DNA of 63,575 bases, filler included, from Collodictyon triciliatum (taxonomy: Eukaryota), in the NCBI GenBank assembly GCA_043381765.1. It is 11 parts of 11 records of this genome, joined end to end, with 100 filler letters (N's around TTAATTAATTAA, not from the genome) between each part and the next. Parts side by side here need not be neighbours in the genome. Positions count along the whole stretch, not along the records: positions 54,685 to 60,932 come from JBHJMP010004607.1; 10 more parts are not named here. One strand, written 5' to 3'. Below, piece by piece: positions 2,726 to 62,268 of this stretch (positions are counted from its first letter, which is position 1; each line of letters opens with the position of its first letter). The position numbers were made by a program, and so were the translations under genes. A model generated the notes under the pieces. It saw nothing but the letters and a program-made list of their open reading frames with translations, ran no database searches and had not been told where the DNA came from.

Positions 2726-3845
2726 GGTCGATTGTAAATATACGTCACAGCCATCTGCCAAGATTTCTCGACTTAATTTTTCAGAGTATCAACAAAAAAA
2801 TTAAATCTTTCCTTAAAAATAACTGAATAAAGGAAACTTATTATAATAAACCAAACCGACTACTTGGGTGCTGGAAATGAAAAAATCCACCACGGCATTT
2901 GATGAAAGTTTTGAAGCTCTATCTAACTTGTTTTCTTCTGGGCTTTTGCCGCTTCCCTTCAGAAACCATTAACACACTGTCCGAAGTATTCACCTCAGCA
3001 CATATTTTATTTAATTCTTCCTTCCAATCACATCAACACACATAAATACATGCTTATGCTTATCTATATATGATAGGACAGATATGCAACCGCACACATT
3101 CACCCACTTTTTTTTTTTGGATTATGCAGAAGAAGCGTTCTTGTAAGAGAAGCCCCGGATTAGATATCTTTTCCCGGTCGCCCTACACTTGCCCACTTAC
3201 CACTTTTTTTTTCTCTTCTGACGCTTTTCCTATCTCTTAGGTTGTTGGCATACAATTCTCATTTCCTCCAAGCAAGAACAAAAAAAGAAAAAAAAAAGAA
3301 AAAAAAGAAAAAAAAGAAAAAAAAAGCGAATTTGTTAAAATGAGTTCAATATTGCAAAGTGCGCCGTTCTGTGGGTGCAATGTTTTAACTCTCAGACCCA
3401 CATCTTCGACACAACGTTCTCTCATTTCTAGTTTCATTTCATGTTCAATCTCTTATGGAGACTGCAAACTGTGTGTTGCAATATTTTAGGTATTTGCGAT
3501 AAATAAAACCAATAGATAATATTACTTGAACATGAAGGCAAAATATGTCGATGTACCCATAGTTATGTGCCTCATATTTTCATTCGCCAGACTCGCACAT
3601 CGACAATAGTATGGACTCGAGGCAACCAAATATATACAGCTATTTTGATTTATTGCTAATGAATTGCACGCCATTCAGAGGGGATGTGAGTGGACCGTGG
3701 TTCGTCAATATCTCCAGACAAAATCACCTTGGTCTTGCGACATTTGTAGAATTATGGCTTGTATCAACCACGTATATCAGTTGGTTTAATTCCAGTCCCT
3801 ATCTGTCCCTGGGAACGGCTGTGACGCCGATGATGTTCTTCATAT

Positions 3846-6258: not shown

Positions 6259-6358
6259 NNNNNNNNNNNNNNNNNNNNNNNNNNNNNNNNNNNNNNNNNN
6301 NNTTAATTAATTAANNNNNNNNNNNNNNNNNNNNNNNNNNNNNNNNNNNNNNNNNNNN
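6259..6358. other. Artificial contig linker (N-run + TTAATTAATTAA + N-run); also at 12615-12714, 18970-19069, 25328-25427, 31699-31798, 38050-38149, 44364-44463, 50714-50813, 54585-54684, 60933-61032
   Basis: The same 100-bp spacer with stops in all six frames recurs ten times. The segments between spacers are mostly about 6.25 kb, as expected for size-sorted contigs. Confidence 0.97.
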
Positions 6359-6680: not shown

Positions 6681-8171
6681 TACTACTTCAGAGCTGTTAT
6701 ATATTGGAGCTGCTGCTGCTCTGCTAGGGCTTTACACTCTTATTAGGTCAAAAAATAAAAGCACAAGGATAGTTGGATATGTTACGCTTTCGGGTAATGC
6801 AGTTAATTAGTGAATGTATCTCAATTATTGTTTTTACAAAAGGATGTCTCAGTACATCTAACAGAGTCGACATGAAAGAGAAAAAGCAACAAAAAGCAAT
6901 AAGAAGCAACAAAAAGCAATAAGAAACAACAAGAAACAACAAGAAACAACAAGAAACAACAAGAAACAACAAGAAACAACATCCAGATAATAGCTCCGTA
7001 TCATAAACTGATGTTTAATTTCAAGTACAAATCTACTTGGATGTATATATACACGTTTTAACAGTCGCACATTAAAAAAAAAACGAATAGCACACACATT
7101 CTACATTCTTGTCTTTTGTTATCTGGCCAATCTGGAGCTGAACGACCCACTTCATCTTGGAGTCCAGCTCCGCTTCTTTCCTCAAGTTCGAATTTATCAT
7201 CGAGAAGCGGTTTCCCCCCTGCATTACTATTCTCTAATATAAATGGTCTATTTCATCAAGCCTTCTTAGTGAATCTATACGAACTTAATCACCAAAACAT
7301 TTAATATAAGGCTGTTGTAATTGTAACTTTTTGGGCGATACTTGGCTTTGCAAAATTATTTGCAACCAAACAAAATATACAATGGATAGCATTACTATTG
7401 GTAGGAGCTCAACTGTACAAACATTATGAAAAGTTTGACATGAGCCAAAATCACCACTTCTCCCAATTTGGAAGAGCCGTCTTGTCTGTCTTACCAACGG
7501 TAACGATTAATCATTACATCAAACTGTTGCATATTTTTTTTGTCGAAAAATTAAAATTATGGACTACCCGTTCTAATATTTTTATTATCACTTTTCCTCT
7601 CCCTGCTTCATATTAGTTATGCAAAACTTATTAAGTTCATAAAGTCTGTCACCCATTCACCGTAAATTGTTGTGGATATGCTCTAAAAAAATGTTTATAT
7701 AAATTACACACCTGCTAGAATGCAATGGTTTTATGTCGCGGAGACCTCGCAATCAATACCTTCCGGTACGTCCAAGATGTTGATGGATTCAGAAAGGATT
7801 TGACAATATTGGATCAGGTTTCTCAAAATTTACCCAGTCATTCTTTTTTTATTTTTTTATTTTTTTTTATTCTTCCTTTCAATTTGTGCAAGGTGATGGT
7901 ATTTCGACTTTGGTTCCCTAGCCATCATTTGCATTTACCTGACCATTCTATTCATTTCTATCATATAATCCTGTTTTGTTATTTCAATTGAGGCAAATAG
8001 GTTTGATGAAGATTTGGGTGAATAAAATACAATTATTCGCGCAACATTCACAACAAATCAGTTTAATTATTTTTCCTTTGCAATCCTCGAAAACTCTTAT
8101 ATGTTTTTTTTTTTTTTTTTTTTTTTTCCTTTCAGTTTGTGCAAGGTGGTGTTTAATTTTTTGCGGTTGTG

Positions 8172-8210
<39 letters not shown>

Positions 8211-9950
8211 TCTTCCTTTCAGTTTGTGCAAGATGGTGTTTAACTTTTGGCCGTTGTGCTATTTTTTCTTTTATATTTTCCATGACATTTCCCCAATCGA
8301 CCTTATTTTTTTTCTTCGTTGAGAAATATTACAATACTATCTAATCACAAATAGGAGATAATGACATGGGATTGGTTTTTGGAGATGCATAGAGAAACGT
8401 ATAGTCACGTAGTTTTCCCTGGAACTCATTATCACGTGAGCCAGCCAGGAAGCTACAACCTTTCCAATTTCCTTGCGCACAACATGGCCCGATTTCCAGG
8501 AGGCATATATGTACACGGCGGATTGAAACCTGGGTATGAGATTTATATCGCTCTAATAATGAATGGGATAAAATAGATATCATTTGGGAGCTGTATTGAA
8601 TAAAGGGAGAAAAATTGGGAACTGTATTGTAGTATTTTTTTCTTGTAAATTTACTTCAAATGAAAATTACTTATATTTCGCGTTACGCAAAAATAAATAA
8701 TAAATAAAATTAAATACATAAAATAATAGAATAAATAAATAAAATAAAATAAAATAGTACTAATTAAGTTTTCCTTGTTATGATGCCCAAAGTGATAACA
8801 GTTACCAATTGGAGTATGAATCCATCCCTTATGGATTGTCCGAAAAAATAGTCTACGCAGGTTTATTTTGAAATGATTATCCCTCTTAAGATTTTTTCTT
8901 CGTGTAGACGACCTAAACTGCATGCGTTAATGTCTCCTTTCTATTTTACATCAGGAAAGGTGATTGATATCGAAGAGTATGTCGTTGAGAACGAAGCGCA
9001 CATGCCCACCGAAGAAACAATGCCCATCCCAGATCCTGTTAAATATGGCGAAGAAACATGGGAGGTAAATTAAAAAGAGAAAAAGAAGTGAATATGACCT
9101 ATGAAAAAGTTTGGTGATATGATTTAATTTAATTTAATTTAATTAGATATTTATCATTATTTTTTTTTAATACCATCCAATAAACATGATTAACTTCACT
9201 ATTCTCGTCTCGTGGTCGAAGAACATGGTCGCTGTGAAATATTATGAATCAAAACACAACCAAGCACTATTCCTACTGAATAATGGTATCCAAACCCACC
9301 AGAAGATTTCATTTGTCAACGCAGGCAAGACATAATTACTTTCTTTTACTTTAAATTGTTGCTTAAAAATCAACAGCGACACAATTCCTATCAGTAACAA
9401 ATTGTGTTCTCTGGTCAATAATTATTATGAAATGCAGCTTATTTGATATACGTTAAATATGCAATATTGAATTCGTGACTCGTTCAAATATATTTTCTTT
9501 ATTTCTTCTCTAAATACATGAAAAAAATGCAATCCTTAAATTATTATTTCTCTTTTATATAGCAAACAAATTAGCTGAATTGCTAAAAGAACAGCCCAAA
9601 CCTGGAAACTGGGTTTATCGAAACGCGGGGATAGCTTATTCTCGCCTATTGACATACAACGATAACACGCATGAAGTGAGTCTCCATCTACTTGAAGAGA
9701 CTTCCTTAGCGGAGAGCAAATATGACGGGATATTATCAAATTAGGGACCTATCAACATTATGACATATTTATGTTTTCTTAATTTAATACACTACAATAT
9801 TCCTTTGTTGGTAGGAAGTAAGAGAATACCTGGAAGGAGTTGTTTCTACATGGTCAAAGTACCTCAAAGTAACTTCTACAATTTATTAGTTCGATAACAT
9901 AACAATACCATACAATAAAAGAGAGAAATGACTGGTCTGGCAGTTAATGC

Positions 9951-12524: not shown

Positions 12525-12714
12525 CAGTTTCCTACCTCTTTCTGGAGCGCCTGACGGTCCGATTGGGCTGGTAGGAATTCCCTGTATTTTTTTTTTTTTT
12601 TTTTTTTTTTCTCTNNNNNNNNNNNNNNNNNNNNNNNNNNNNNNNNNNNNNNNNNNNNTTAATTAATTAANNNNNNNNNNNNNNNNNNNNNNNNNNNNNN
12701 NNNNNNNNNNNNNN

Positions 12715-14107: not shown

Positions 14108-17100
14108 CATTCTAGAGAGACACCTCATTGATATATTGAAATTCCATTGAGTCTTTTTTTAAGAAACTCTCATATGATTAGGAAAAGTTCATGTAACTCG
14201 TAGCATTTTTTTTTATTGATATATATCTTTTAGGCATGTAAATAGAGAAATCAATAATATATATTTTGCTTTTGTAGGTTGCTCAAATCCACACCACCAA
14301 AAAAAACTAGTGTAATTTGTGCAATATATGCATTGCGATCTAATCAAGAATGGGCTTTCGAAGGTGTAACCGAAATTTCAAGGTATGTGATTTATGTGAG
14401 ATTATATCTAATTTAAATATCCTCCATTCTGCACAAAATGGAAAGGAACAATAAAAAATCAAATTAAATATTTTTGATTGGGAATGGAGTTTGTGTCAGG
14501 TAAATTTATGCGTCTACAAATTAACAAAGATGAAATATACACCACAGAGGCAATACAAGCCCATCGTTCATCCGTTCATTTGTCCTTCAATATGAGCCTC
14601 ATAAAGTATTCCGTATTGTTGTCTATGATTCTGAGCAGCCAAAATTGAACATACAGACCGATTCTCGATATGGGACCATTGTAAACTACCTTCTATAACC
14701 CAATTTTCCGGTTATATTAGTTAAAATCATCATAACATATACATTACTATTTATAATTAACTTCATGGACTTTAAGGAATTTAGCTTGGAAAGTTTGGTT
14801 AATGCTCCAGAAAAACAATTAACAAAGAAAATAAGGTTAGCAATTTGCTGCTTATATTGTGATAGCCTTCAACCTATAACTCAAAAATCAATTTATAGCG
14901 GGGTTTTGTTTAAGGAAATATTCATAATTAAAACTATATCGATTTACACAGTTCTCAAGAAGATGGGGCCAAACGTGAGGGATTTGTGACGATAGTCGGT
15001 AACATTATCAACTGTCTGATTAGGTGCACCATTTGCTTTAAACAAAAGCCTGCTATTGGTTCTCCTCTAAAATCCTCACTGTGATATGGACCTGACTTCA
15101 TCCATGCTAGGTTTCAAATGAGAGGCGAGTTCTTGAAGAATATTGAGAACAGCCAGGAGCCAGGTATTTTCATACTTTACTTCGTCTTTTGGTTATATTA
15201 ATTCTACGAAATAATTGTCTTGGGTAGATGCCACAACTTCAGATATGTGGCACATTTGATTGCAGTTATTTGTCTTTTTTTTCTTCTATATATTAAAATA
15301 CCAATAACACTTCACCATCCTGCACAAAATTGAAAGGAAGAATAAAAAAAATATAATACCAATAACACGTACTTTATCATACAGACACACTTTTTGTGTT
15401 GTCTCGTGTTGAGCATAGAGAGACGGGAAAATTGTCCAGACCTGTCTATTTCAGCGAATGTGTCGAAAAGAGTATATCACCTGTTTTTAAGTACGTCGAG
15501 GTGCCTTTTTCGTGTGTGTTTTCCTCAGAGAATGCTAGCGATCATCTCGAAATAGGCATATTTGAAGTTAATATGGGAATATCCAACCTAATCGGAACAG
15601 TGTCGGTGAGTGCAGTCAATAAGTTACACTTCTCTTATGTACACTGTTATATAGCTATTTGCAATCTGTGCCAACATCCTTATTTTTTTCATTAACTAAA
15701 ATTGCCAAACAGTTTACCGTATTTGATTTGGTGGTGCAACGTAAAACAAGATTTAAGTTGAGAAATGATATTGTGTCAGAGAATGAAAATAATTCTGAAG
15801 GATTCATCGAGATTCTAAAGTTTGAGATTAGAGACACTAGCACTGATTTATTCCAGCCTAAAGAAAGCGTTTCTCTCTCAAAACAACCAAGAAGGATTCA
15901 CTTAAAGCAAACACAAGAGCATATTAGACCTATTCAGTTAGTATCAAATTTTGACTTTACGAACCTTCAAGCCCGAATGGATTCACTGAAGCATTTGGCC
16001 GACCAGATGCAACGAGAAGCAGTAGAGGAAATAACCTTAGAGGCTGACCATGTTTTGAGTCAAATCACAAAGGATCTTTTGCCCAATGGTGAGTTATTAC
16101 AAGCACACCATATTTAATAGATATATATGTTTCTAATAGTATGGCAAGTCCTTCATGTTTTAGGATGGATATAATAACTATTACAAAATTTTTTGAATCG
16201 AATAAAGGAAAAAAAACTATTACAAAAATTTTCATAGAAACCGACATCTTCCAGGCAATTGCCTCAGAAAACTATGCAAATATACATGAACACAAATCAT
16301 AATTTATGTACAATCTGACCGCATCGTATGTTCATTATTGTAATAGAAAATGCCAGAACATACTTTCGAGAGAATGGAGGATTAGCCACTTTGGTAAAGA
16401 TGATGAAATCACGGGATAAGATAATATCCAAGCCCGTCTTGGGGCTTATGAAATTCCTGACATCAAACGGTGCATTTTTTTTTATTCTTAATATTTAGAC
16501 TATATCCCCTATCCCCTCCAACTGGTTGTTCTTTTTCCCTGATGCGTGTGTTTCTATCATATTTTCTCTCTGAAATCATACTAATGCAACTAGCCGAATG
16601 TTAATATCTCTAGGAGATACCCGCAAAGAACTTGTTAAAGCTGGCATTCTTCCTGTTCTTTCCATACATCTTTACTCCGCCTATGACGAAGACCTCAAAA
16701 GATTGGCCATTTGGAACATCGCGCACTTATGCAGGAATGAGCGTAATCTTAAAACATAACATCCCTGTTTGATATAGGCTCTCTAACAGCGATTCAAAAC
16801 AAAGTCTACTATCGCTTACTAAAATTCGATTGGTCTTTTTCTGTCATCTGATCTCTTGTTATCTTAAAAACAAAAAAATACAAAGAAAATATCTAAATCA
16901 AAGTGTGATATGCTACTATGCAAGTCGATAATAATACGCTAAGCGATGATTTCTTTATCAGCTAAAAATAAGGTGGCCATCAAAGATTTGGGTATCCTTC
17001 CCTTGTTAATTGGTCTTTTAAAATCATCTGATACTGATATGGTTTCACTGTGCTGTTGGACTCTCTCCACGATAGTTTTTAAGGATTGTACGTCATTTTA

Positions 17101-18969: not shown

Positions 18970-19295
18970 NNNNNNNNNNNNNNNNNNNNNNNNNNNNNNN
19001 NNNNNNNNNNNNNTTAATTAATTAANNNNNNNNNNNNNNNNNNNNNNNNNNNNNNNNNNNNNNNNNNNNCTCTTTATCTCTTTATCTCTTTATCTCTTTA
19101 TCTCTTTATCTCTTTATCTCTTTATCTCTTTATCTCTTTATCTCTTTATCTCTTTATCTCTTTATCTGTTGAATACTTGAATGTTTGAACATTTATATCA
19201 TATATCGATCACGCTTCGATTTACTTTCTTTTTTTCCGTTTCTTTTCTTAATTCTACCATCCTCGCTTGTCCATTATATCCTTTTTTTTGCGTAG

Positions 19296-21479
19296 CGTGG
19301 CGCATACTTTCGAGGAATGGAAGTCACTTGGATGCAATTGAAGCGGGATGTTCTGCGTGCGAGGAACTTCAATGCGATTTTACCGTGGGTTTTGGTGGAA
19401 GGTATTTTTTTTTATAAAAAGAGTCGAAGGAGTTTCATTTCTTATTATTGACGAGCATTGATTTCTGCTCAACAAACAACCATATTAAGTCCAAATGAGC
19501 GAGGTGAAACGACATTAGATGCCATGATAATGGACAGGTTGCATTTTTGTTCTCGAAACTCATCCAAAGAACCCATCTTTAATCATTCCATCATTTTCAT
19601 TTGAAATGTGCGGTTATATGATCAATAGGGAATATATTATCTTCTTTTTGCTTTCATAATATTTTTTTATTTTGTGGCCAATTCATAAATCCACATTATA
19701 TGTTTGTATACTGAAGCATTTTTTCTCTCTCTTTTTGATTTGCTGGGAAAAAAAGTGAGGTTCATGATGTCGGTGCAGTTGCGGTGATGAAGAGAGTGAA
19801 ATCTGCCATATCGGTTGCTCGGAAAGTACTGGAAAACACAGCCCACACATTGTTGGTCGGAGAGGATGCCACGCAATTTGCTCTAAACATGGGCTTTAAA
19901 GAAGAGAGTCTGTCAACAGACGAGTCCAGGTCCGATATTTTCTTTATATATTTACTGTCTTTTCTTTTATTATGTACGACTGTTTTTTTTTCCGGATTTT
20001 TTACATGAATAGTTATAGACACATTTGCCATTTCAATTCATTGTATAAGAAAAAAAAAAGAGGAACCAAGTATAAACAATTAGTAAATAAACACAAGAAA
20101 GCGTCATCAAGATTGGCTCGCAAACTCGTGCCAACCAAACTTTTGGCGGAATGTTCGACCCGATCCAACCCAAAGCTGTGGCCCTTACTCTCCAATATCG
20201 TCCGAATCACCTGTCAAGTCCAGCGACCTGAGTCATTACATCGACAGGGTAAAATAAGAGAAATTGATAAGGAGAAGAAATAAGAGATACCACATATAAT
20301 GGGCGAAAAAAAAATCAAAGTGAAATAATTAAGAGAATTATGATTTTGAATCGAATAAAGGAAAAAGAAATAATAATGGTAATAGTAATGGTATCTAACG
20401 ATCACTTATCGATTGCGTATGGAAAATAGTACAACCATGACACCATTGGAATGGTTGCTATTGATACTCATGGGCGATTGGCTGCAGGCACTTCGACAAA
20501 CGGGCTCTCATTCAGAATCCCTGGCCGTGTTGGTGATTCGCCCATCACAGGTGCAGGTGCATATGCCGAGAAAGGAATTGGCGGAGCAGCAGGAACCGGT
20601 GACGGTGATGTTCTCGCACGCTTTCTACCAAGGTTTCTTTATCTGATTTAACTGTCTCCTCCATACAACCATGAACAGCTGAGAATATGCCAATCAAAGA
20701 AAAAAAAAGACATAATCTTTACAGAAAACGAAGTGGATATATGCGAAATGAATTTATGATGGGTATTCAGATAAATGAGACACAAAGAAAAGATGAATGT
20801 TAAAATAAAAAATTAAAATACTATACGATATGCTTTCTTGTATGTGCCTGTGTTTGATTTTTTTTAAAAAAAGAAAAGAAAAAAATGAGTAAATAATTAA
20901 GTCACAATTTTAATATAGTTTTCAGGTTGTACGCAACATGGCCGCAGGAATGAGCCCGAAAGAGGTATTTGTGCTTTGCTATCATACTTTTTTTTTTTTT
21001 GGTTCGTTGTCTGTCATGTATTAAAATCAAACAAGAAACCCTCTCATAATTAATTCGAGCTTGCTTTCGATACGCCTGACTTGAATCATTACAAAGGCGG
21101 CAGAGGATGCGCTTCGAAGAATCCTTCGCTTCTACCCAAACTTTTCTGGGGGTTTGGTCGCCCTCAACGCGAAAGGAGAACACGGTACATCCTCGAAGCT
21201 TGCACCCACCAAGAAAAAAAAAAGCATCTCTTTATAATTAATATTATGCGGAATCTCTCGTGCAAGTCGCGGTGATTTAACAGTCGAATGAAATGTGTCA
21301 TTATTCGGCTTTGTTCATCATGGCATTTTTTTTTTTATTCTAGCGACTTCTTTATAATCAACGTATCTTAAAATATCCGAATAGGAGGCGCCGGCCATGG
21401 TTTCAGCTTCAGCTATTCTGTGCAGAACGCAGCAAGTGGTGATGCTATTGTGATTCCAGTGACACCCATTTCGCTTTGA
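19296..21479 (+). CDS. AGA: N(4)-(beta-N-acetylglucosaminyl)-L-asparaginase (glycosylasparaginase), 5'-truncated
   Basis: [34 protein letters not shown], autoprocessing site HDTIGM, GTSTNG and [12 protein letters not shown]. All introns are GT-AG. Confidence 0.95.
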
Positions 21480-25327: not shown

Positions 25328-25427
25328 NNNNNNNNNNNNNNNNNNNNNNNNNNNNNNNNNNNNNNNNNNNNTTAATTAATTAANNNNNNNNNNNNNNNNN
25401 NNNNNNNNNNNNNNNNNNNNNNNNNNN

Positions 25428-25902: not shown

Positions 25903-28900
25903 ACACATTCATATAGATATTGAATATATTTAAACACATAATTCAAACAGCCTAGTATACATTATACTTCATAAATTAACTGACAAATACACGGGGATTT
26001 TAGTTCGACACATTCCCCACAATCATCTGTACAATAACACATATCGCGACCCTCAATATTTCTGGAAATCAGGTTACAAAATTACACAACACATATTTTC
26101 AAAACAAAAAAAACTGATGAATGAACAATAGTTCAAACTATATTAATCAAATACCCTCTTAAACTCACCCATCGTACAAATCCAGATTTCATACATCCCA
26201 GATGTCATAGCAAACCTTGCAAATATTCAAAAACTGGACATATCCAACAACAAGGTCATATCTCTTCCGTTTTCCGTTTATTTGTTTATTTTTTTCCCAT
26301 TTTTTGGTTCAGTTTTATGGCCGTATTTCGCAAAAAAAAAAAAAAAAATAACAATATCATTATCAGATCGAAAAGCTACCCCAAATCATCGCCAAGCTTA
26401 AAGGCCTTCGAGGTGGACTGAATATCCAGGGAAATCAAATTAAAAATATCCCAGAAAACGTCATTAGAAATGGGTATGAGACTATCTTCGATTTCCTATC
26501 CAACTCCATGAATGGTGTTGTAAAATGGACCCAAGGAAGACTTCTGCTACTTGGTGAAGGAAACGTAGGGAAGACAACACTCATCAAATCAATCACACAA
26601 AATCACTGGTTTTTCAAGAATATGACAGACCAGCAAAGGATTGCAACTGATGGTATTGCCCACGTTGATATCGATGAGTCGATGATGGGTGGACTATTCA
26701 AGACAAAGATTTCCGTACAAATCTGGGATTTTGGTGGACAAGAGGAGTTCCAAGTAACACATCCATTCTTTTTGTCATCGGGCGCCCTCGTTTTAATCCT
26801 GTACAGACTCGACCAAGGCAAGGAGAAGAACAATCTCAGCCGCTGGGTCAAAATGCTCGATGACTTTGCACCTGGCTCAAAAATCATAATTGCTGGGACT
26901 CGTCAAGATTGCGAAAATCAAACTTATATTCAAGAGATGCAAAAAGAAATAGAACGTATCAAAAAAGAAAATGAGCGGAAACTGGATGAAAAAGCTCGCC
27001 ACATCTTCATCAGTACAGAGTTGAAAGTAAGCAACAAGAGAGGAACAAAAATATCATATTTGAAGGAAGAAGTATATAAAGGAATGATGACACTTGATAA
27101 CATGAACAAGGAAGTTCCAAAATCATACATTGGGCTGAAAGACTATCTGATTTCAAAAGGTCAAATATCGAAGTACGAACGAATCCAAAACACTTACGAT
27201 TTTGCCAAGAAGCAGCTGGGTATGGATAGAAATGAATGCGAAAGTGCTCTCAAATTCCTCCACGACCTTGGCTCGGTCGTTTGGTATTCATCACTTGAAC
27301 ATATCAAAGACATTATATTTTTAGACCCGCTCTTTCTCATTAATATATTCCGTTGTGTCTTCAGCTTCAAAGGTATCGGGAAGGACACAAATGGTATCAT
27401 TTTGTTGGGCAAGCTAAAAGACCAAATAAAACACGAATTGAAAATAGAACTAGATGAACATGTGTTCAATACAATTCTTCGAATCTTTGACCATTTCGGC
27501 CTTGGGATTCAATTCAACAAAGAATGCATCGCCTTTCCCTCACTGATGGAAGATTGCCAAAATCTCAAAGCATTATGGAATGAAAAACCAGAGTCAAACT
27601 GCATCGCTGAGACCTCTGTAGAGATAATTACCAATGGTGGAGTCCAGCTCTCTGACAAAAGCAACGTCGTCATACGGGCGCTTCGTTTGACAAAAGGGGC
27701 ACAAGCTGGAGTTCAGTATGACGACCAGTTTTTCAGAGATGTCGCATTCATACATCTGAATGCTTCGTACAAAACAGGAACGGATGAAATTCAACTGCTT
27801 CCTGGAGACGGTTTGATTATTTTGTATCAAATCCACCAGAAGAGCATTTCAGTCAAGATTAGAAAATACGAAAATGTGGTTCACGATGATGGCGATAGAA
27901 TCGTCAGGATTTTCGACATTCTTTGCACCTTCATCAAACAAATATCATCGATTCGACCAAATTTTGTGGAAGCATATCAATTTGAATGCCCTGAATGCCA
28001 ACGTCGTGGATTAGACGGTTATATTCAAACATCAGCAAAGATAAATGACTCAGAATTGAAAAAATGTACGAAGAGCCATCAATTGGAAGCGAGTACAGTG
28101 AAGCAAGGGCGCGTCTATCTGGAACAAGGTTTATTATAATCAATACATTCAAATATATTTTAATTTTCAACTTAATGATAATTTGATTATATGTTATCGA
28201 AAGCTTATAAATAATTTTTTTTAAAAAAAAGGAATCTCAAGGAGATTTGCCTCTGTGGTGAGAGCGAAAAAGACGAAGAAGTTGCAATCTGCTGAAGCAG
28301 TTCTTGAGCCGGATTCAATCGACCGGGAATTAAAAGACGAATGGATTCATGAAAAAATAGAACTGTCAGGTTATCTCGCAAAGGGGGCATATGGGCGAGT
28401 TTACACAACAACATTCAAAGGAAAAAGTGCTGTGGTGAAAATCCAAACTATGCAGAAGAACAAAGAGCAGACCTTCAGCGAGGTGATTCAATCGCTCATT
28501 TTTGAAAGCAAGTATCTGCATGAATGCAAGGAATGCGAAAACATTGTCAAATTGTTTGGTGTGTATCGTAAAGATGACGACTTTTTCATGATTATGGAGA
28601 ATGCAGGAATTTCGTTGAAAGCGATGTTGGAGAAGAAAAATATCAAGCCAACATTGCCTCAAGTCATTTCTTACACAATGCAACTTTGCAAGGGTCTCAT
28701 TTTCATGCATTCTAAAAATCTATATCACGAAGATTTGAAGGCCGATAACGTTATGATTGTGGGTGAAACAGTAAAAATTGTGGATTTTGGGATAGTGAGC
28801 CATCGCGACATAGAAAAGGTTGGTTCAAACTTACCGACGAGATTTGGTGAGAACAAGCAAGGCGGAACGGCTAATTGGCAAGCACCGGAAATCCATGAAG

Positions 28901-30678
28901 TCTCCTGTGAACCGTTTTATAATGATAATCCAAAAATGTATGGTGATGATGAAGTAAACATTGGCCATCGTGGAGAACCAAGTAATGTGTATGCTTTAGG
29001 AATGCTCGTTTGGTACATGTTCTCTGGTATCGAGCCGTTCCAGAATGAAACACAAACACAAAGTTTCATTATCAGGGGATTACGACTTGAAATACCGAAA
29101 GAAGCCACTCGGGAACTTAACCATCTCATCAAAACAAGTTGGAGGCAAAACTACAAGCTCCGACCTTCTCTGAATCAAGTTTCTGCATACCTGGATGAAT
29201 TGAAATCAGGCGAACAAAGGCTTTCTCAAAAGATGATGAGCGATTTGCTTCCAATTAAATACACTCCTTTGGCTGATATGTACCAGGGTGAATTTGTGGA
29301 GTGGCTTCGAGAGTATGGCTTTTTAAAACTAAGCGATATAATTTCAAATCAAAGCTGGGGAAGATTCCAAGAAATTCAAGACAAACTGGATGAAAGGATG
29401 ATGGTTGATATGTATCACATATCGCCGGATGAAATTTCTGCATTTGTTGAACTGTCGAAAGAGGAAGGCACTGGTAGCGATTCCCAAGCTCCAAAGAAAA
29501 AAGTTGAAGAATTATTTTACAGCCAATTGGTGACTCATCTCCAGAAAAAGAAAGACGAATTGTCAGAAAGACTGCTTGGGAAAGTGAAAGCTCTGAGGCT
29601 TGATGGAAAAACAATATCCAAGCTTGACCAGCCTGATGTCCACGCGATCCATTCGCTTTCTGAGCAAGAACTCTCGTTTGTGTCCCAATTCATAAACGAC
29701 CACCTACATCCAAATGAGATTGAGTCTCCTAAACATCCATTAAGCTCCGGTACCCTTCAAGATTTGGAAGAAATTCAATATATGAATGTGCGGTACATCC
29801 CTTACAATCATGGTATCCAACACGCAACCTCGCTGTGGATGGGCGATATGAAGCTCTCCCAGATTCCTAATTCGCTCAAGCATGTAGTCGGGTTAAAGAA
29901 ACTCTACCTCCATTCAAACCTAGTAATATTTACTTAATATCGATGAATAAATAAAATAAAAAAGCCACCAATACATTTAATTATTAACCATATTGTAACC
30001 CACCTCCTTTTTACAGCTTGTATATTTCCCGATGTCATGCTTCGCCCTTACGAACCTAGAGTATCTGGACTTATCAAAAAATAAGGTTTTCTGCTTGTGT
30101 TTTTTTTTTCTCCTTTACCAATTTTTAAATATACATATATACTAGTATATAATTTCATACCTGCATTTGAATCAACTTCATTCATAACTCCATTCTGCTC
30201 ATTTACTTTGATATACAGATATCATCAGTACCTGCTCAAATATCACACCTGACGGTTTTAACTCGCCTTGATGTCTCTCAAAATCAGTTGTCATCACTAC
30301 CTTCAGAAATATCATGCTTGAATGGTCTTATTCGCCTCGATGTCTTTCATAATCAGTTGATGTCACTGCCACAAGGATTATCGAGCTTAGCGTGCCTTGT
30401 ACAGTTGGATATCCGTGATAATTCGGTTTGTTAAATGTATAAATGTCGAAAAGTCAGGCCACTATTTTGAACTCATAATTATATTTCCATTCCTACATAT
30501 TGATGAGCTTCCTGCCGGAATTACTGCTCTGACTGCTCTCAGTCGCTTGTGCATCCGCAACAAAGAAGGAAAATCGAGCATCAAGAAGGCGCCTCCCGGC
30601 ATCACACTTCTGCCTTGTTGGAACGAGCAGAGCAATCCAGATTATGAAATAATTCGTAAACTGGTGCTTTATGACCAC
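25499..30678 (+). CDS. Roco protein: LRR-Roc-COR-kinase-(SAM-like helical region)-LRR; 5'-truncated, 3' end uncertain
   Basis: 69-nt LRR exons at 25499-25567, 25658-25726, 25830-25898, 26004-26072 and 26186-26254. Roc motifs GEGNVGKT, ATDGI and WDFGGQEEF. COR region with CPEC...C..H. A phase-1 intron (28129-28231) joins the kinase (KGAYG, HEDLKADN, DFG, APE). C-terminal LRR exons at 30017-30085, 30219-30425 and 30499-30678. Confidence 0.9.
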
Positions 30679-31798
30679 GTAAGAAATCTATGTTTGTTAT
30701 TCATTCACATGCTGCTCATATATAAGATAAATGCATTCGTATGTTAGTGTTTCTTTTTCTTTCTTCTTTTTTGGTTTGTTTTGTTTAAAAATAAAAGAAA
30801 TCTCAATTACTTATTTTATCAAACGACCAGCAGTAACCAAGAACTGGATTTTTTTCTGTATGAAGCCGGTTAAAGTGGTAAGGTGCAAGCTGGTATTAAA
30901 GTGTACAATATATCAAAATAGCTTTGTTTTTTTCGCTACTTCTTGAGTGTTGATGGTTGGAATATAGGTCATCAAAAAATCGGCAGGCAAATGCAGCATC
31001 TTTTTTGCTCCAACACCCGGCGATTTATTTTTACTACCTGCCAGCCAGCCAGCCAAGCGTTTCACAACCTGCTCACCTTTTTCTCCATCTTGACTCCCTT
31101 TTCACCCCATTTCACCCTTTCTTTCTCGGGTTTTTTCAGCACAGCTTTTCCCGATATCACAACCAGCAATCCACAAGCACCACACCCACACCAATGAGTC
31201 AGAATAAAGATGATAAAAAAAAAGCATGAGTAAGGTCAGCTCCAATATAAAATAATCATGTGGATACCAGACAGGAAAATGAGAGATAAAGAGAGGAGAA
31301 AGTAAGTCACGTGAAGACCTGGTGATTCCCTTGATTGTAATCCGCGATGCTCAATTAGTGATGCCTCAGTTATACGAGACATATACAAATTGCAACATTC
31401 GTCTGTCCATGGTCCTTTAAGGTTTTTCGATTGAGTGGGCTGTGTATCTGTGCGCAAGGTGATGCAAGATTCTGTATTAAAATTTTAAAAAAAGAAATAG
31501 GAAGAAATGGAAGTTTATCTTGCGATCACTTTTATTTTTTGCTTCTCATTAAATTTATCATGAGGTGAACAACATCTATTGAATTGTTTGTCTAAAGCGC
31601 AGTGATACATACATACATACATACATACATACATACATACATACATACATACATACATACATACATACATACATACATACATACATACATACATACATNN
31701 NNNNNNNNNNNNNNNNNNNNNNNNNNNNNNNNNNNNNNNNNNTTAATTAATTAANNNNNNNNNNNNNNNNNNNNNNNNNNNNNNNNNNNNNNNNNNNN

Positions 31799-38027: not shown

Positions 38028-38149
38028 TTATTGTTGTTTTTATTGTTGTNNNNNNNNNNNNNNNNNNNNNNNNNNNNNNNNNNNNNNNNNNNNTTAATTA
38101 ATTAANNNNNNNNNNNNNNNNNNNNNNNNNNNNNNNNNNNNNNNNNNNN

Positions 38150-42472: not shown

Positions 42473-42524
<52 letters not shown>

Positions 42525-44141: not shown

Positions 44142-44463
44142 CTTCAACCAGAATGATACAAAACTTTATAAAATCTTTCATAATAAATTTTTAAAAAAAA
44201 AGTTGGTAGAAAATCAACTATCATTTGTCCTTTGATAATTGTTTCAGTTTACTGGAAACGTCATGACACATTTCGTTTGTATGTACAAAAAAAAAAAAAA
44301 AAAAAAGAAAAAAAAATTTTTTTTTATTATAATTTTTTTTTTTTTTTTTTTAACACACACAGANNNNNNNNNNNNNNNNNNNNNNNNNNNNNNNNNNNNN
44401 NNNNNNNTTAATTAATTAANNNNNNNNNNNNNNNNNNNNNNNNNNNNNNNNNNNNNNNNNNNN

Positions 44464-45706
44464 ATGATTACCTCAGCAGAATGAAACCAAAAATCTGTTT
44501 AACACAGGAATTATGCCTCACAAATGTTCTTATTGCGATGTAAGGCTTTTTTAAGACGAATCAGTATCGATATTTTGTTCGAATGGGAAGATTCATCCAC
44601 CATTTATTGAACCACCGCCTGAATCCATCAGCTTTATTTGACGGAGATTTTGATTCACCTCAGCAATTTCTAAAATATATAAGCTAGAAAGAACTGATAT
44701 CAAATGAATCCAGTTAGGGCATCGAAGGAAATAATTGAAACATTTTTAACACTTCCTTCAAAATTCATGACAAAGAATATCATTTCTTGGGGTCTCTCCT
44801 TTTGTCGACGAATAAAAGTCCAAAATTTCTTGAAATACACATTTTTTTGGGATGAACATGGACAAGGTATGTTGAAGTACAAGATTCCGAAGCTTGGATT
44901 GGAAAATAATTCTTCACATCAAAGATTTACTGCACAAAATAATAAATTGGCACATGTCTTTAAAATGGCCCAAGAAATGTCGAATATCAATGAGCAAGTA
45001 ATATTAGCATTGAAGCTGACAGAAATGCAGAAGTTGAACACAAAAAGTTTCAATACCCGACTACTAATCAAGTGGCTGCTTCAATGATAGGATAACCCAA
45101 TAGCACAAGAGATATCATTATCAAGACGAATGATGACAGACTTAAAAGAGATATATGCACACATATATATTACGATGCTCTTCAATATCCCATCATATTT
45201 TGAAATGGTCATAATGGCTATCATCTCAATAATTACAAATTCGATTCCAAGAGAAAAACTGGAAGTTTTGGGCAATTTTTTTTTTAAATAAAAAAGGAAC
45301 TTGAAACAAAATTTATGGCTAAATGATTGTGATTAGACAAGCTGAAAATAAAATACCCTTGCTGGTAACAAGGACTTTATTTAACCAGTTCTTGGTGGAC
45401 ATGTATGCATAAGTTGAAGCAGATTTTTTTGTTTAAAAATAATCAAAAGAGCTTAGAGCATAGAATGATGCTCATCTATTAGATTCTGTCTCTTCTGATA
45501 GAAAAATAAAGAATGTTGTTAGAATGGTTATTTTATCTTCTGGGTATGTTGGCGAGCCTATATTCATGTATTTAAAGTTTCATCTCTTTAATATGGAACG
45601 AATTAAAGGGGCTCTCCCATGCGCACAATTTGGTTTGGGTTGAAAATCACATAAAATCAGACAAAATCGATGACATTATATCAGCATAACTCCCGAATGA
45701 GGACGA
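44464..45706 (+). mobile_element. Degenerate Helitron RepHel fragment (stops and frameshifts)
   Basis: Across frames: GIMPHKCSYC...FCSNGKIHPP, PTTNQVAA, RDIIIK...YDALQYPIIF*NGHNGYH, LFNQFLVDMYA*VE, RMVILSSGYVGEP, and the HUH-type motif KGLSHAHNLVW...IDDIISA*LP. Confidence 0.85.
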
Positions 45707-46676
45707 NNNNNNNNNNNNNNNNNNNNNNNNNNNNNNNNNNNNNNNNNNNNNNNNNNNNNNNNNNNNNNNNNNNNNNNNNNNNNNNNNNNNNNNNNNNNNN
45801 NNNNNNNNNNNNNNNNNNNNNNNNNNNNNNNNNNNNNNNNNNNNNNNNNNNNNNNNNNNNNNNNNNNNNNNNNNNNNNNNNNNNNNNNNNNNNNNNNNNN
45901 NNNNNNNNNNNNNNNNNNNNNNNNNNNNNNNNNNNNNNNNNNNNNNNNNNNNNNNNNNNNNNNNNNNNNNNNNNNNNNNNNNNNNNNNNNNNNNNNNNNN
46001 NNNNNNNNNNNNNNNNNNNNNNNNNNNNNNNNNNNNNNNNNNNNNNNNNNNNNNNNNNNNNNNNNNNNNNNNNNNNNNNNNNNNNNNNNNNNNNNNNNNN
46101 NNNNNNNNNNNNNNNNNNNNNNNNNNNNNNNNNNNNNNNNNNNNNNNNNNNNNNNNNNNNNNNNNNNNNNNNNNNNNNNNNNNNNNNNNNNNNNNNNNNN
46201 NNNNNNNNNNNNNNNNNNNNNNNNNNNNNNNNNNNNNNNNNNNNNNNNNNNNNNNNNNNNNNNNNNNNNNNNNNNNNNNNNNNNNNNNNNNNNNNNNNNN
46301 NNNNNNNNNNNNNNNNNNNNNNNNNNNNNNNNNNNNNNNNNNNNNNNNNNNNNNNNNNNNNNNNNNNNNNNNNNNNNNNNNNNNNNNNNNNNNNNNNNNN
46401 NNNNNNNNNNNNNNNNNNNNNNNNNNNNNNNNNNNNNNNNNNNNNNNNNNNNNNNNNNNNNNNNNNNNNNNNNNNNNNNNNNNNNNNNNNNNNNNNNNNN
46501 NNNNNNNNNNNNNNNNNNNNNNNNNNNNNNNNNNNNNNNNNNNNNNNNNNNNNNNNNNNNNNNNNNNNNNNNNNNNNNNNNNNNNNNNNNNNNNNNNNNN
46601 NNNNNNNNNNNNNNNNNNNNNNNNNNNNNNNNNNNNNNNNNNNNNNNNNNNNNNNNNNNNNNNNNNNNNNNNNNNN

Positions 46677-48050
46677 GTTGAGAATCATAAAGCAAGCTTA
46701 TAACATAATAAAAGGACATCCCCTTACAATTAGAGAGCGTCTTGATTTTATATTTTTGATTATTCGTAGTGATTAAGTTGCGGCAGATGTCTTTCAGCTC
46801 CTTCAGCCTTTGGGGATTCAGAAAAGTACCTTTCATGTTGTAGATAAAGGCCGACAGCATCACTCGATTCCACAACCTTACTTTCCCCACGTCCGAGAGA
46901 TGAAAGTTGCTCCACCCTGATATTTTCGACTTGATGTCTTCAACCAGGCTTGTCCATTTGCTATCCAATTGTGGACCGAAGATGATACCAAGATGCTTGA
47001 GTGGATGTGAGAGTGGCTTCCACACAATGTTTCCTGGAAACACAAGTCCGTCCTGAGAACCGAAAAGAATTCCATCTGTTTTTTCGTAGTTGATTTTCCC
47101 GCTGACAGCTCGTGTGTATTCCTGCATGCATTTGTTGGCGAGTGTGGCGCCTTCGTGAGACCGCAAGATGAACTCTGTGTCGTCTGCATATTGAAGTAGC
47201 AGTTGGTTGTGTACCTTGTTTTCGTTTCGGAAGTGGTTTGCAAGGCAAAGTCAGCGACAAAGTTGAAGAGCAGTGGTGCAAGTGGGCAGCCTTGATACAC
47301 CCCGCTCTGTCTTTGAATTGCATCCGTAGGTCCGTGTGCCGTGAGTGCCTTTCTGTTGCATTGTCGTGCAGTTTCTTGATAAGACCGGTCAATCCGGTAC
47401 AGAAGCCTCTTTTGTGTAGGATGGTTTCCAGTGCTTCGTGGTTCACATAGTCGTATGCTTTCTCCAGGTCGTAGAAAATCATAGCACGGTGTACCCCGCT
47501 TACTTGATATTCCATGTACTCCTTATTGTCAATCCAGATGTTTGTGTCGATGTTCCTTCCGTTCATGAAACTAATCTGCTCTTTGGATATGAGTTTGTAA
47601 GCGATGGGTGATATGCGATTTCTGAGTAGCGTCGTAAATATCTTATAGTCGTTATTCAACAGTGATATTGGCCGCCAGTCTGCAAGGTTGCTCGAGTCTC
47701 CTTTCTTTGGTATCAGCCGCACCGTGGCCTCTGTAAATCCTTGCAGTAGGTCGCCACCAGACATGATTCCATTCAGAAAAGCCACCAAGGGTGCCTTGAC
47801 CTCATTAAAGAAAGCAGAGTATATTCCGTTTGGCAACCTATCTGAACCTGGCGCCTTTCCGTTGTGTAGCGACTTGACCGCTTTCCACAATTCGCCTGCA
47901 TCTATTGGTGCTATCATGCTGGCTGCTTACGAGTATGAAGTCTTAGAGCAGTTTGTGGTGATAAGCTCGAGAGTAGCAGCATCATAGTCTTATCTTGACC
48001 ACATATTTGAGAAGAAGTCGTGGGTGTTCTTTTTGTTGTTACGAGGTTAT
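46677..48050 (-). mobile_element. Non-LTR retrotransposon (L1/Tx1-like) reverse transcriptase, frameshifted; 3' part lies in the gap
   Basis: KAPGSD, LIPKKGD...WRPISLLNNDYKI, DLEKAYD, QGCPLAPLLF and YADD (47179-47190) fall in three different frames. Confidence 0.92.
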
Positions 48051-50549: not shown

Positions 50550-50847
50550 CCAAGGAAAGGGGCAGTGGAGTCGGTTTGGGCGGATTCCGAGGCTGTGAGG
50601 GCGAGTGTACTGAGTTGTGTCTTTTGTGTCTTTTGTGTCTTTTGTGTCTTTTGTGTCTTTTGTGTCTTTTGTGTCTTTTGTGTCTTTTGTGTCTTTTGTG
50701 TCTTTTGTGTCTTNNNNNNNNNNNNNNNNNNNNNNNNNNNNNNNNNNNNNNNNNNNNTTAATTAATTAANNNNNNNNNNNNNNNNNNNNNNNNNNNNNNN
50801 NNNNNNNNNNNNNAAAAGGAACAAAAAAAAAAAAAAAAAAAAAAAAA

Positions 50848-50886
<39 letters not shown>

Positions 50887-51324
50887 AATATACGTATTTC
50901 GCTTGATGTACCAGTCATATCTTTTGTTGCCATTATTTCTTTGTGGTCTCTTTGTCAGTTGTGTTGTAATTTCCAGAAGTGGAAGTAATGTTGCGAATAG
51001 AACCCAAATGGGGCGGCAAGGAAGGCGAGAATGGTAAACATGGCTGTCGGAGCGAACAGGAATAATGCAGAGAAGCGGAGGAAATGGAAAGGGAGAATAA
51101 AATACGATCGGCGTGTGCCGAAGCAGTTGCGCAGTGAGAAGGTCGACCGTTGTCATTTGAGAATCTTTCGTAACAAGGGCTTTCTTTTCCTTTTATTTTT
51201 ATTTGATCTTGATATATGGAGGCGAAGAGGCCTTGTCTTGTGGGTCGAGCGATATTTTGGAAGGGAAGGATTTGTATGGCACTTTTCTTTCTTTTCTTTC
51301 TTTTCTTTCTTTTCTTTCTTTTCT

Positions 51325-54572: not shown

Positions 54573-54684
54573 CCAATAATTATTNNNNNNNNNNNNNNNN
54601 NNNNNNNNNNNNNNNNNNNNNNNNNNNNTTAATTAATTAANNNNNNNNNNNNNNNNNNNNNNNNNNNNNNNNNNNNNNNNNNNN

Positions 54685-55180
54685 GTTATGAGTCCCAGTC
54701 CTCCCTCCGTAGGTGGCTTAGAGAGCGTCTTGATTTTATATTTTTGATTATTCGTAGTGATGAAGTTGCGGCAGATGTCTTCCAGCTCCTTCAGCCTCTG
54801 GAGACTCAGCAAAGTGCCTTTCGTGTTGTAGATAAGGGTCGACAGCATCACTTGGTTCCACAACCTTACTTTCCCCACGTCCGAGAGATGAAAGTTGCTC
54901 CACACTGATATATTCGACTTGACGTCCTCAGCCAGGCTTGTCCATTTGTTATCTGATTGTGGACCGAAGATGATGCCAGGATAGTTGAGTGGATGTGACG
55001 GTGGCGTCCACACAATATTCCCTGGAAACATAAGTCCATCATGAAACCCAAAAAGAATTCCATCTGTCTTGTCGCAGTTGATTTTTCCCACCAAGAGCAT
55101 GTGTGTATTCTTGCATGCATTTTTGGCGAGTGTGGCGCCTTCGGGAGACCGCAAGATGAATGCTGTGTCGTCCGAATATG
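54685..55180 (-). mobile_element. Second, 5'-truncated copy of the same LINE (RT C-terminal part)
   Basis: Aligns by eye with 46730-47190. It begins at YSDD and includes SNFHLSDVGKVRLWN and KPPTEGGLGL. Confidence 0.9.
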
Positions 55181-55372
55181 TTTATTTCCAATGCGAAAAC
55201 AGCAGGAAATATCAAACTCATCACGAATAAGCATGCAAGATATGTCTAAATTATTGATGAGATAGGGATAAACGAAGTTCAAAGCTTGAGGATTTATTAG
55301 TTACGAAGATACTTTGACAGATGTATGAATTACCACACACAATTATTTTTCTTGCACCAACGAACTCTTAAT

Positions 55373-55428
55373 AGTGCACCTTATTTCTGAATCGAATAAA
55401 GGAAAAAAAAGAGTACACCTTATTTCTG
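55373..55428 (+). mobile_element. Family A micro-insertion AATCGAATAAAGGA(n) with 17-bp TSD
   Basis: Flanks AGTGCACCTTATTTCTG and AGTACACCTTATTTCTG differ by one mismatch. Confidence 0.8.
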
Positions 55429-56813: not shown

Positions 56814-57389
56814 TCCTGTGGCTTGGAGGTTCGATAGGGCGTCAGCTCTTCTAGTAGCATATGATTATATACCCAGTAGTTGAACAAAAGGAGGTGGCTA
56901 GATCGTGGCAGCAAGTAGCTCATTTCCCAACCATACACTTTTTCCCTTTATTCGATTCAAAGTTGTTGCCAGCCATATATATTACGCTTCCGTACAAAAG
57001 TTTCAAAGGCTTGTCTTCTCTTCTCAAAAGGCTAGGCCTTCCGCAGCTGTGGCGGGTGCTTTCAAAAAAGAAAAAAAGAAAAAAAGAAAAAAAGAAAAAA
57101 AGAAAAAAAGAAAAAAAGAAAAAAAGAAAAAAAGAAAAAAAGAAAAAAAGAAAAAGAAAAAGAAAAAAGAAAAAGAAAAGAAAAAAGAAAAGAAAAAAGA
57201 AAAAAGAAAAAGAAAAAAGAAAAAAAAAGGAAGAAAAGAAAGGAACGGAGAAGTATTTTCTGAAACTGATCAAGGTAGTTTACTTTGGATGTGTGTTGCG
57301 ATGCGCCATACAAACGAGGCAGAAAACAACGATGTTAGGAGAGTATGCCTGCAAGATTGTGAAAGCAAACTCAGGGGATCTTCAAAGGC

Positions 57390-59918: not shown

Positions 59919-60658
59919 NNNNNNNNNNNNNNNNNNNNNNNNNNNNNNNNNNNNNNNNNNNNNNNNNNNNNNNNNNNNNNNNNNNNNNNNNNNNNNNNNN
60001 NNNNNNNNNNNNNNNNNNNNNNNNNNNNNNNNNNNNNNNNNNNNNNNNNNNNNNNNNNNNNNNNNNNNNNNNNNNNNNNNNNNNNNNNNNNNNNNNNNNN
60101 NNNNNNNNNNNNNNNNNNNNNNNNNNNNNNNNNNNNNNNNNNNNNNNNNNNNNNNNNNNNNNNNNNNNNNNNNNNNNNNNNNNNNNNNNNNNNNNNNNNN
60201 NNNNNNNNNNNNNNNNNNNNNNNNNNNNNNNNNNNNNNNNNNNNNNNNNNNNNNNNNNNNNNNNNNNNNNNNNNNNNNNNNNNNNNNNNNNNNNNNNNNN
60301 NNNNNNNNNNNNNNNNNNNNNNNNNNNNNNNNNNNNNNNNNNNNNNNNNNNNNNNNNNNNNNNNNNNNNNNNNNNNNNNNNNNNNNNNNNNNNNNNNNNN
60401 NNNNNNNNNNNNNNNNNNNNNNNNNNNNNNCAATAATCACGAAGAGCTCCCACTTTCCTTTTCATTAAACATTCTTACTTTCCCACCCAAGCACGAAGTC
60501 GCCAGTTGGGGGTGAAGTGGGTGGAATGCAACATCAGTGGCTGTTTCCGTGTACCTCGCTATTTTATGTAAGACTGTTACTTTGTGAAGGTCGTGCAATT
60601 ATGCAGGCTATATGAATACGCATCAGATTTTAGCCAGCACCAGCCATTAATTCATATC

Positions 60659-60713
60659 AACCACACATTGTTGCTGTTGAAAGGAAGAATAAAAAAAACC
60701 ACACATTGTTGCT
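60659..60713 (+). mobile_element. Family B micro-insertion GTTGAAAGGAAGAATAAAAAA with perfect 17-bp TSD
   Basis: AACCACACATTGTTGCT occurs at 60659-60675 and again at 60697-60713. Confidence 0.8.
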
Positions 60714-61305
60714 CTGTAAATTATATTTTTGATAGAAGAGACTCTAGTATAGCATAATTCATTGTTGTTGGTGATGTATTCATAAACTAATTATTCAGAA
60801 TAATAAAAGTTGATTTGGCTCGCAATCTGTATTTTTAAATTCAACAAACTTTGTCTTCTAATCCACAATCCAAAAATCGTAAACAAAGGGCTGCATGATA
60901 TACAAAGTTCATGAATGCGGTTCATATGCCCCNNNNNNNNNNNNNNNNNNNNNNNNNNNNNNNNNNNNNNNNNNNNTTAATTAATTAANNNNNNNNNNNN
61001 NNNNNNNNNNNNNNNNNNNNNNNNNNNNNNNNAAAAAAAACAAACAAAAAACAAACAAAAAACAAACAAAAAAAACAAACAAAAAAAAAACAAACAAAAA
61101 AAACAAACAAAAAAAACAAACAAAAAAACAAACAAAAAAACAAACAAAAACCAAAAACAAACAAACAAACCAAATGAATACGATGAAGTAATGAATGTTA
61201 AATATCCTCGTTTATGTCATTCTCATTTTTTTCTTGCAAAACAGTACAGCCATCCACAATTTCTTCTGTAATAACAAAAGCATGAATACTTTACTTTATT
61301 TCCAG

Positions 61306-62212: not shown

Positions 62213-62268
62213 CGCATGACTCTGGATTTTTTCCTCCTTTATTCTATTCAACCGTGTGACTCTGGATT
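62213..62268 (-). mobile_element. Family A micro-insertion, reverse orientation, with 16-bp TSD
   Basis: CGCATGACTCTGGATT and CGTGTGACTCTGGATT flank a sequence whose reverse complement is GTTGAATAGAATAAAGGAGGAAAA. Confidence 0.7.

Follow-up and report, generated by a model that had tools for sequence, protein, structure and literature searches.

We identified six copies of a short A-tailed sequence, here termed family B, in a stretch of DNA from Collodictyon triciliatum, and we confirmed that these copies, with bodies of 15-64 nt and a common 3' end, are real retrotransposition insertions. The preliminary description of this DNA had taken them to be retroposed sequences sharing one 3' end and differing in 5' extent, and this reading holds: they carry A tails and target-site duplications (TSDs) of 14-17 bp that are specific to each locus, and they are found in both orientations on three contigs. 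Family B is an ordinary mechanism at an unusually short extreme. Each copy is probably the extreme 3' end of a retroelement RNA (its last 15-64 nt plus poly(A)) that was inserted by target-primed reverse transcription. The most likely source of this RNA is the 3' untranslated end of a second poly(A)-type LINE lineage (L1-like, APE plus RT), distinct from family A, the other tail family discussed below.

The window, i.e. the whole stretch of DNA that was analysed (63,575 bases), is not one locus but consists of about 11 contigs of ~6.3 kb each, two of which are shorter. The contigs are joined by N44-TTAATTAATTAA-N44 spacers, located at 6259-6358, 12615-12714, 18970-19069, 25328-25427, 31699-31798, 38050-38149, 44364-44463, 50714-50813, 54585-54684, and 60933-61032. 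Further sequence is concealed by two longer N runs, at 45707-46676 and at 59919-60430. The G+C content of the window is 28-43%. Many contigs end in homopolymers or simple repeats, so that long A/T tracts adjacent to a spacer are to be regarded as assembly break points and not necessarily as complete features.

The family B motif can be written as ...TGCACAAA(A)YTGAAAGGAAGAATAAA followed by poly(A), and its six copies (B1 to B6) are distributed over three contigs and both strands. On reading the sequence, all six were present at or very near the positions first proposed for them. In order to survey the window, we used the 19-base core TTGAAAGGAAGAATAAAAA as a query with up to 3 mismatches allowed and obtained 8 matches, whereas 100 shuffles gave 0.13 on average and never more than 2. 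Six of these 8 matches were B1 to B6; the other two, at 3009-3027 and 51085-51103 (3 mismatches each), lack both a tail and a TSD and were rejected as chance matches. A profile built from the six copies and run with nhmmer recovered those six alone in the window. A blind scan for direct repeats of at least 13 bp around an A-tailed insert gave 5 cases in the window as opposed to a mean of 0.05 and a maximum of 1 in 100 dinucleotide-preserving shuffles. Four of the cases are genuine stubs, namely B1, B2, and two of family A, and the fifth is a tandem repeat. Overall, two of the six family B copies have exact TSDs and another two have decayed ones.

The shortest stub is B1 (insert 60676-60696, plus strand), in which a 15-nt body, GTTGAAAGGAAGAAT, is followed by A6-8 and the whole is bracketed by an exact 17-bp TSD (AACCACACATTGTTGCT, 60659-60675 and 60697-60713). 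B2 (insert 15311-15354, plus strand) comprises a 33-nt body, A8, and a terminal TAT, and is flanked by an exact 14-bp TSD (AATACCAATAACAC, 15297-15310 and 15355-15368). B3 is an older copy on the same strand (insert 14421-14458), with a 32-nt body bearing 2 changes in the core, a tail of A6, and a decayed TSD (14407-14420 and 14459-14471) that retains 12 matches with 1 mismatch and 1 gap. B4, the longest copy (7844-7932, minus strand), possesses a 64-nt body and an interrupted A tail of 25 nt between the two halves of a decayed 16-bp TSD (7828-7843 and 7933-7948, 12/16 identical). The last two copies, also on the minus strand, form a tandem pair, with B5 (8104-8172; 45-nt body and A24) as the downstream unit and B6 (8173-8259; 51-nt body and A36) as the upstream unit. 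They are arranged head to tail, share the 5' start GCACAAC, and are ~90% alike; B5 lacks the AAGAAT just ahead of the tail and has A's in its place. No convincing TSD was found around the pair. A degenerate A-rich stretch (8260-8279) precedes B6 on the minus strand and aligns with the A36 that lies ahead of B5. The pair is best explained either by one unit having been duplicated together with its tail or by another insertion that landed in the A tail of the first copy.

All six copies terminate in ...TGAAAGGAAGAAT(A)n, with tails of 6-36 A, and when they are aligned on this end their bodies extend over 15, 32, 33, 45, 51, and 64 nt. Two sequence subtypes can be distinguished, one with an extra A (CACAAAAT) common to B2 and B3 and the other with CACAAA[T/C]TG in B4 to B6, which points to an evolving multi-copy lineage. 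Exact and decayed TSDs occur side by side, indicating that the activity of family B was spread over time. A coding reading of the tail was rejected on the alignment: the subtypes differ by a 1-nt indel and have no common peptide, as fits a non-coding 3' end. The insertion site could be read at four copies (TC/AACC, AA/AATA, TA/TCTA, and TA/GAAT). The L1 endonuclease prefers TT/AAAA-like targets; the four sites are A/T-rich, with no clear consensus and no clear match to this preference, and they are too few to judge.

Three of the copies, B4, B5, and B6, were described from the outset as residing in a single intron, and a spliced contig now defines that intron. The contig, from sequencing run X2, matches 7746-7818 exactly and then continues with the letters of 8356-8385, giving a junction from 7817/7818 to 8355 and a GT..AG intron of 537 nt at 7818-8354 on the plus strand, with the three copies antisense inside it. 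Bodies and tails of family B account for ~245 of these 537 nt, and, read along the gene strand, the low-coordinate copy of the B4 TSD (7828-7843) begins 10 nt past the intron's first base. The identity of the host gene, given earlier as TMEM260, could not be confirmed: Pfam provided 0 relevant matches for 6 exon-sized ORFs at E values up to 1, one ORF having two weak unrelated matches (E 0.035 and 0.19), and the Atlas search of one ORF gave no usable match. When the contigs of four sequencing runs were compared with 7700-8103, we retrieved the spliced contig from X2 together with two short pieces from X3 that matched poorly. No element pile-up, empty-site joint, or parent contig was found for 7700-8103 among the contigs of these four runs, in which the gap in cover is uninformative. 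A second possible intron surrounds B3, which has a GTATGT-type donor-like site (~14383) on one side and a ...TGTCAG acceptor-like site (~14497) on the other. If 14381-14500 holds a real intron of ~115 nt, the B3 insertion and its duplication make up roughly half of it.

The combination of A tails, TSDs, a common 3' end, and variable 5' ends points to target-primed reverse transcription by poly(A)-type LINE machinery with extreme 5' truncation. In one account of LINE-1, a poly(A) end, a TSD of <20 bp, and frequent 5' truncation are presented as the hallmarks of its insertions (PMC10760644). By this route, an endonuclease would nick the chromosomal target and the nick would prime cDNA synthesis from the poly(A) end of the RNA. 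Reverse transcription, or the survival of the template, would end after a few dozen nucleotides, staggered cleavage of the second strand would generate the 14-17-bp duplications, and joining of the truncated cDNA to the target would leave a 'dead-on-arrival' stub. The type of enzyme, a LINE as the source, and an early stop as the cause of the shortness are what we infer.

The resemblance to 5'-truncated LINE-1 insertions is close, as these likewise possess a poly(A) end, a TSD of <20 bp, a common 3' terminus, and variable 5' ends (PMC10760644). Both also occur at dispersed sites, on both strands, and within introns. The lengths are very different: family B copies measure 15-64 nt, whereas somatic human insertions are reported in the same account as mostly <2 kb together with a near-full-length class (PMC10760644). 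No parent element was found for family B, and its four readable insertion sites give no clear target preference. That account describes the causes of 5' truncation as unclear even for human LINE-1 (PMC10760644).

With regard to a possible parent element, tblastn with 70 ORF2-like proteins located two decayed LINE RT fragments in the window, both on the minus strand, at 46741-48046 and 54687-55181. An ORF at 46964-47926 (minus strand) matches RVT_1. The 70 longer protein relatives of the RT fragment show 26-41% identity to it and mostly combine Exo_endo_phos, RVT_1, and zf-RVT; a few bear the name LINE-1 ORF2 in their sources. None of these 70 relatives belongs to a near-identical element, and the C-termini that were read bear no resemblance to a translation of the family B tail. 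By these coding matches, the genome has APE-type LINEs. The 3' end is not visible for either fragment: the 3' part of the one at 46741-48046 lies inside the N run 45707-46676, and the one at 54687-55181 runs off its contig. The visible DNA past the former fragment and its N run contains no family B motif. About 1.6 kb downstream of this RT fragment, at 45277-45300 (minus strand), we observed ...GTTCCTTTTTTATTT followed by A10, a tail that differs from those of families A and B and that may be the LINE's own tail. In the ~61 kb of window sequence, we encountered neither a full-length element nor any long copy with the family B tail at its end, so that the LINE origin of family B is something that we infer. 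The proposal in the preliminary description, that these sequences represent the 3' terminus of a second non-LTR element or SINE, is borne out as regards the retroposed 3' termini and stays a proposal as regards a LINE or SINE source, for which no parent was found.

Database searches with the tail sequence were similarly carried out. A 24-base family B-specific pattern had 0 matches in metagenome contigs, where the 19-mer TGAAAGGAAGAATAAAAAA occurred at no fewer than 124 loci. Most of these loci belong to an unrelated internal repeat (...GTCAGGAACA-motif-GGGAAAAAGGAGAAC...) in two JGI record series (Ga03075xx and Ga03254xx) and were discarded; the remaining ones are scattered singles. None of the loci read displays the upstream sequence of family B or a tail with a TSD behind it. 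In genome contigs, the 19-mer was encountered at 76 loci from diverse bacterial and archaeal records, which we took as chance matches from their titles alone. In viral contigs, a 21-base version of the core, beginning with C or T, had 0 matches. The abundance of the unrelated dispersed repeat in which the 19-mer is embedded is a warning against searching databases by short tail motifs alone.

As a rule, LINE families of the ordinary kind leave behind numerous copies that measure hundreds to thousands of bases. The fact that all six family B copies are shorter than 70 nt counts against a LINE source and makes a short dedicated RNA possible. Family B could then be a SINE-like micro-retroposon, that is, an RNA of ~50-65 nt with its own fixed 5' end that uses a LINE enzyme in trans, a reading that we consider unlikely. 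It would account for a maximum length of 64 nt in 6/6 copies and for the lack of any longer family B copy in 61 kb, and a SINE of ~100 bp, Platy-1 of the marmoset, is on record (PMC4864456). It would also account for the 5' starts, which are at the same base in B5 and B6 and within 1 nt of each other in B2 and B3, as defined 5' ends rather than random truncation could produce. However, the remaining copies start elsewhere, and the 5' ends of independent copies are spread over 15, 32/33, 45-51, and 64 nt. B5 and B6 are adjacent and hence do not constitute independent proofs of a fixed 5' end, and for six copies over 64 nt we estimate a chance of about one half that two starts coincide to within 1 nt. 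B4 and B6 can be shown to be homologous over their last ~49 nt only; beyond these, their 5' parts are no more alike than shuffles (score 16, reached in 254/500 shuffles).

A search for structural features of a SINE was negative. ARAGORN detected 0 genes, and so no tRNA-like head, in 7600-8500. The Rfam search gave no family at threshold, the best E values being 0.31 and 0.93, far under the gathering scores. No conserved hairpin was detected at the family B tail in five of the six copies (-0.1 kcal/mol, 0 compensatory pairs), B1 having been left out because it is too short. Platy-1 and family B have in common that they are small A-tailed retroposed units dependent on LINE machinery (PMC4864456), but family B is shorter than Platy-1 and other very short SINEs, and its independent copies show no Pol III-type head and no clear fixed 5' end in common, a point for which a set of six is too small to be decisive. 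We retain the truncated 3' end of a LINE RNA as the preferred interpretation.

A different template for the same machinery would be a host transcript, the copies then being fragments of processed pseudogenes, for which LINE enzymes would have copied the end of the 3' UTR of a single abundant cellular mRNA. The mRNA-like end of family B, an AATAAA that passes directly into poly(A), is in line with such an origin, and 5' truncation and TSDs would look identical. LINE 3' ends also commonly carry AATAAA, however, and six copies in ~61 kb, on three contigs, in two subtypes, and of mixed ages correspond to the density and diversity of a transposon lineage rather than to retrocopies from a single gene. 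An mRNA source is for these reasons improbable, and slightly more so than the SINE-like RNA. That family B is not mobile at all, but a fixed intronic or regulatory motif or a local duplication, might be suggested by the three copies in one intron, two of them in tandem, yet this is very improbable and is contradicted by the TSDs, as each locus has its own TSD between unrelated flanks, the exact 17-bp and 14-bp duplications bracket their inserts precisely, and the copies lie in both orientations on three contigs.

Retroposed stubs in the window are not limited to family B. Family A, whose tail is GAATCGAATAAAGGAAAA, is represented by two plus-strand stubs with exact 13-bp TSDs, one with its insert at 16189-16214 (16176-16227 with the TSDs) and the other at 55390-55415 (55377-55428 with the TSDs). 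The same tail sequence is found at 20348-20365 and at 56941-56958 (minus strand). A variant of it, GAATAGAATAAAGGAGGA, at 62232-62249 (minus strand), is associated with an 11-bp duplication, ATCCAGAGTCA. Together, families A and B and this variant imply that at least three tail types leave stubs in the window. The terminal sequences of families A and B differ, and the two are rightly regarded as distinct, as had been stated initially. Family A stubs are, like those of family B, A-tailed inserts, of ~20-30 nt and with 13-bp TSDs; family B, by comparison, has a different terminal sequence, reaches 64 nt, and includes a head-to-tail pair.

The shortness common to family B, family A, and the A-like variant hints that an early stop is a trait of the host or of the LINE clade rather than of one element. 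As a tentative hypothesis, to which we give somewhat less than even weight, target-primed reverse transcription may stop within ~15-65 nt whatever the RNA, the early stop being a property of the host or of the enzyme of this LINE clade. If this is true, retrotransposition would yield mainly stubs, and these would steadily lengthen introns and supply A/T tracts. In a bolder version, the stubs would originate from short, dedicated tail RNAs whose 5' ends are fixed and which to our knowledge would be smaller than any described SINE.

Taken alone, family B copies are tidy but ordinary scars of retrotransposition. Their value, a modest one, is that they provide a second, independent tail family with extreme shortness, indicating that truncation at such an early point is not confined to a single element. 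With two short tail families, the question shifts to what in the host or in the LINE clade ends cDNA synthesis early, and a genome in which truncation is almost immediate could serve as a natural contrast to human LINE-1. Although stubs of this kind fall below the length that standard repeat annotation can handle, they can occupy a large share of some introns, as in the ~245/537 nt given above.

The A tails had further been proposed to seed some of the abundant poly(A/T) tracts. The window contains 26 A/T tracts of at least 12 bases, from which we excluded the one at 1-75, which has no upstream flank, together with 10 situated close to an N run or to the end of a contig. Among the 15 tracts evaluated, two (8104 and 8173) are family B tails and one (10359) lies directly next to a family-A-like tail. 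A bare tract bracketed by a TSD was seen in 0/15. Seeding by A tails thus applies to a minority of the tracts (2/15 for family B and 1/15 for a family-A-like tail) and is not borne out for the rest. A T50 tract at 42474-42523, which on the minus strand follows ...ATCGCACAAATAAC and around which no TSD was found, may be another retroposon tail or a microsatellite.

In another part of the window, at 26352-29937 (plus strand), two long consecutive ORFs with Roc/Ras, COR-A, and protein kinase domains correspond to a ROCO (LRRK-like) kinase gene.
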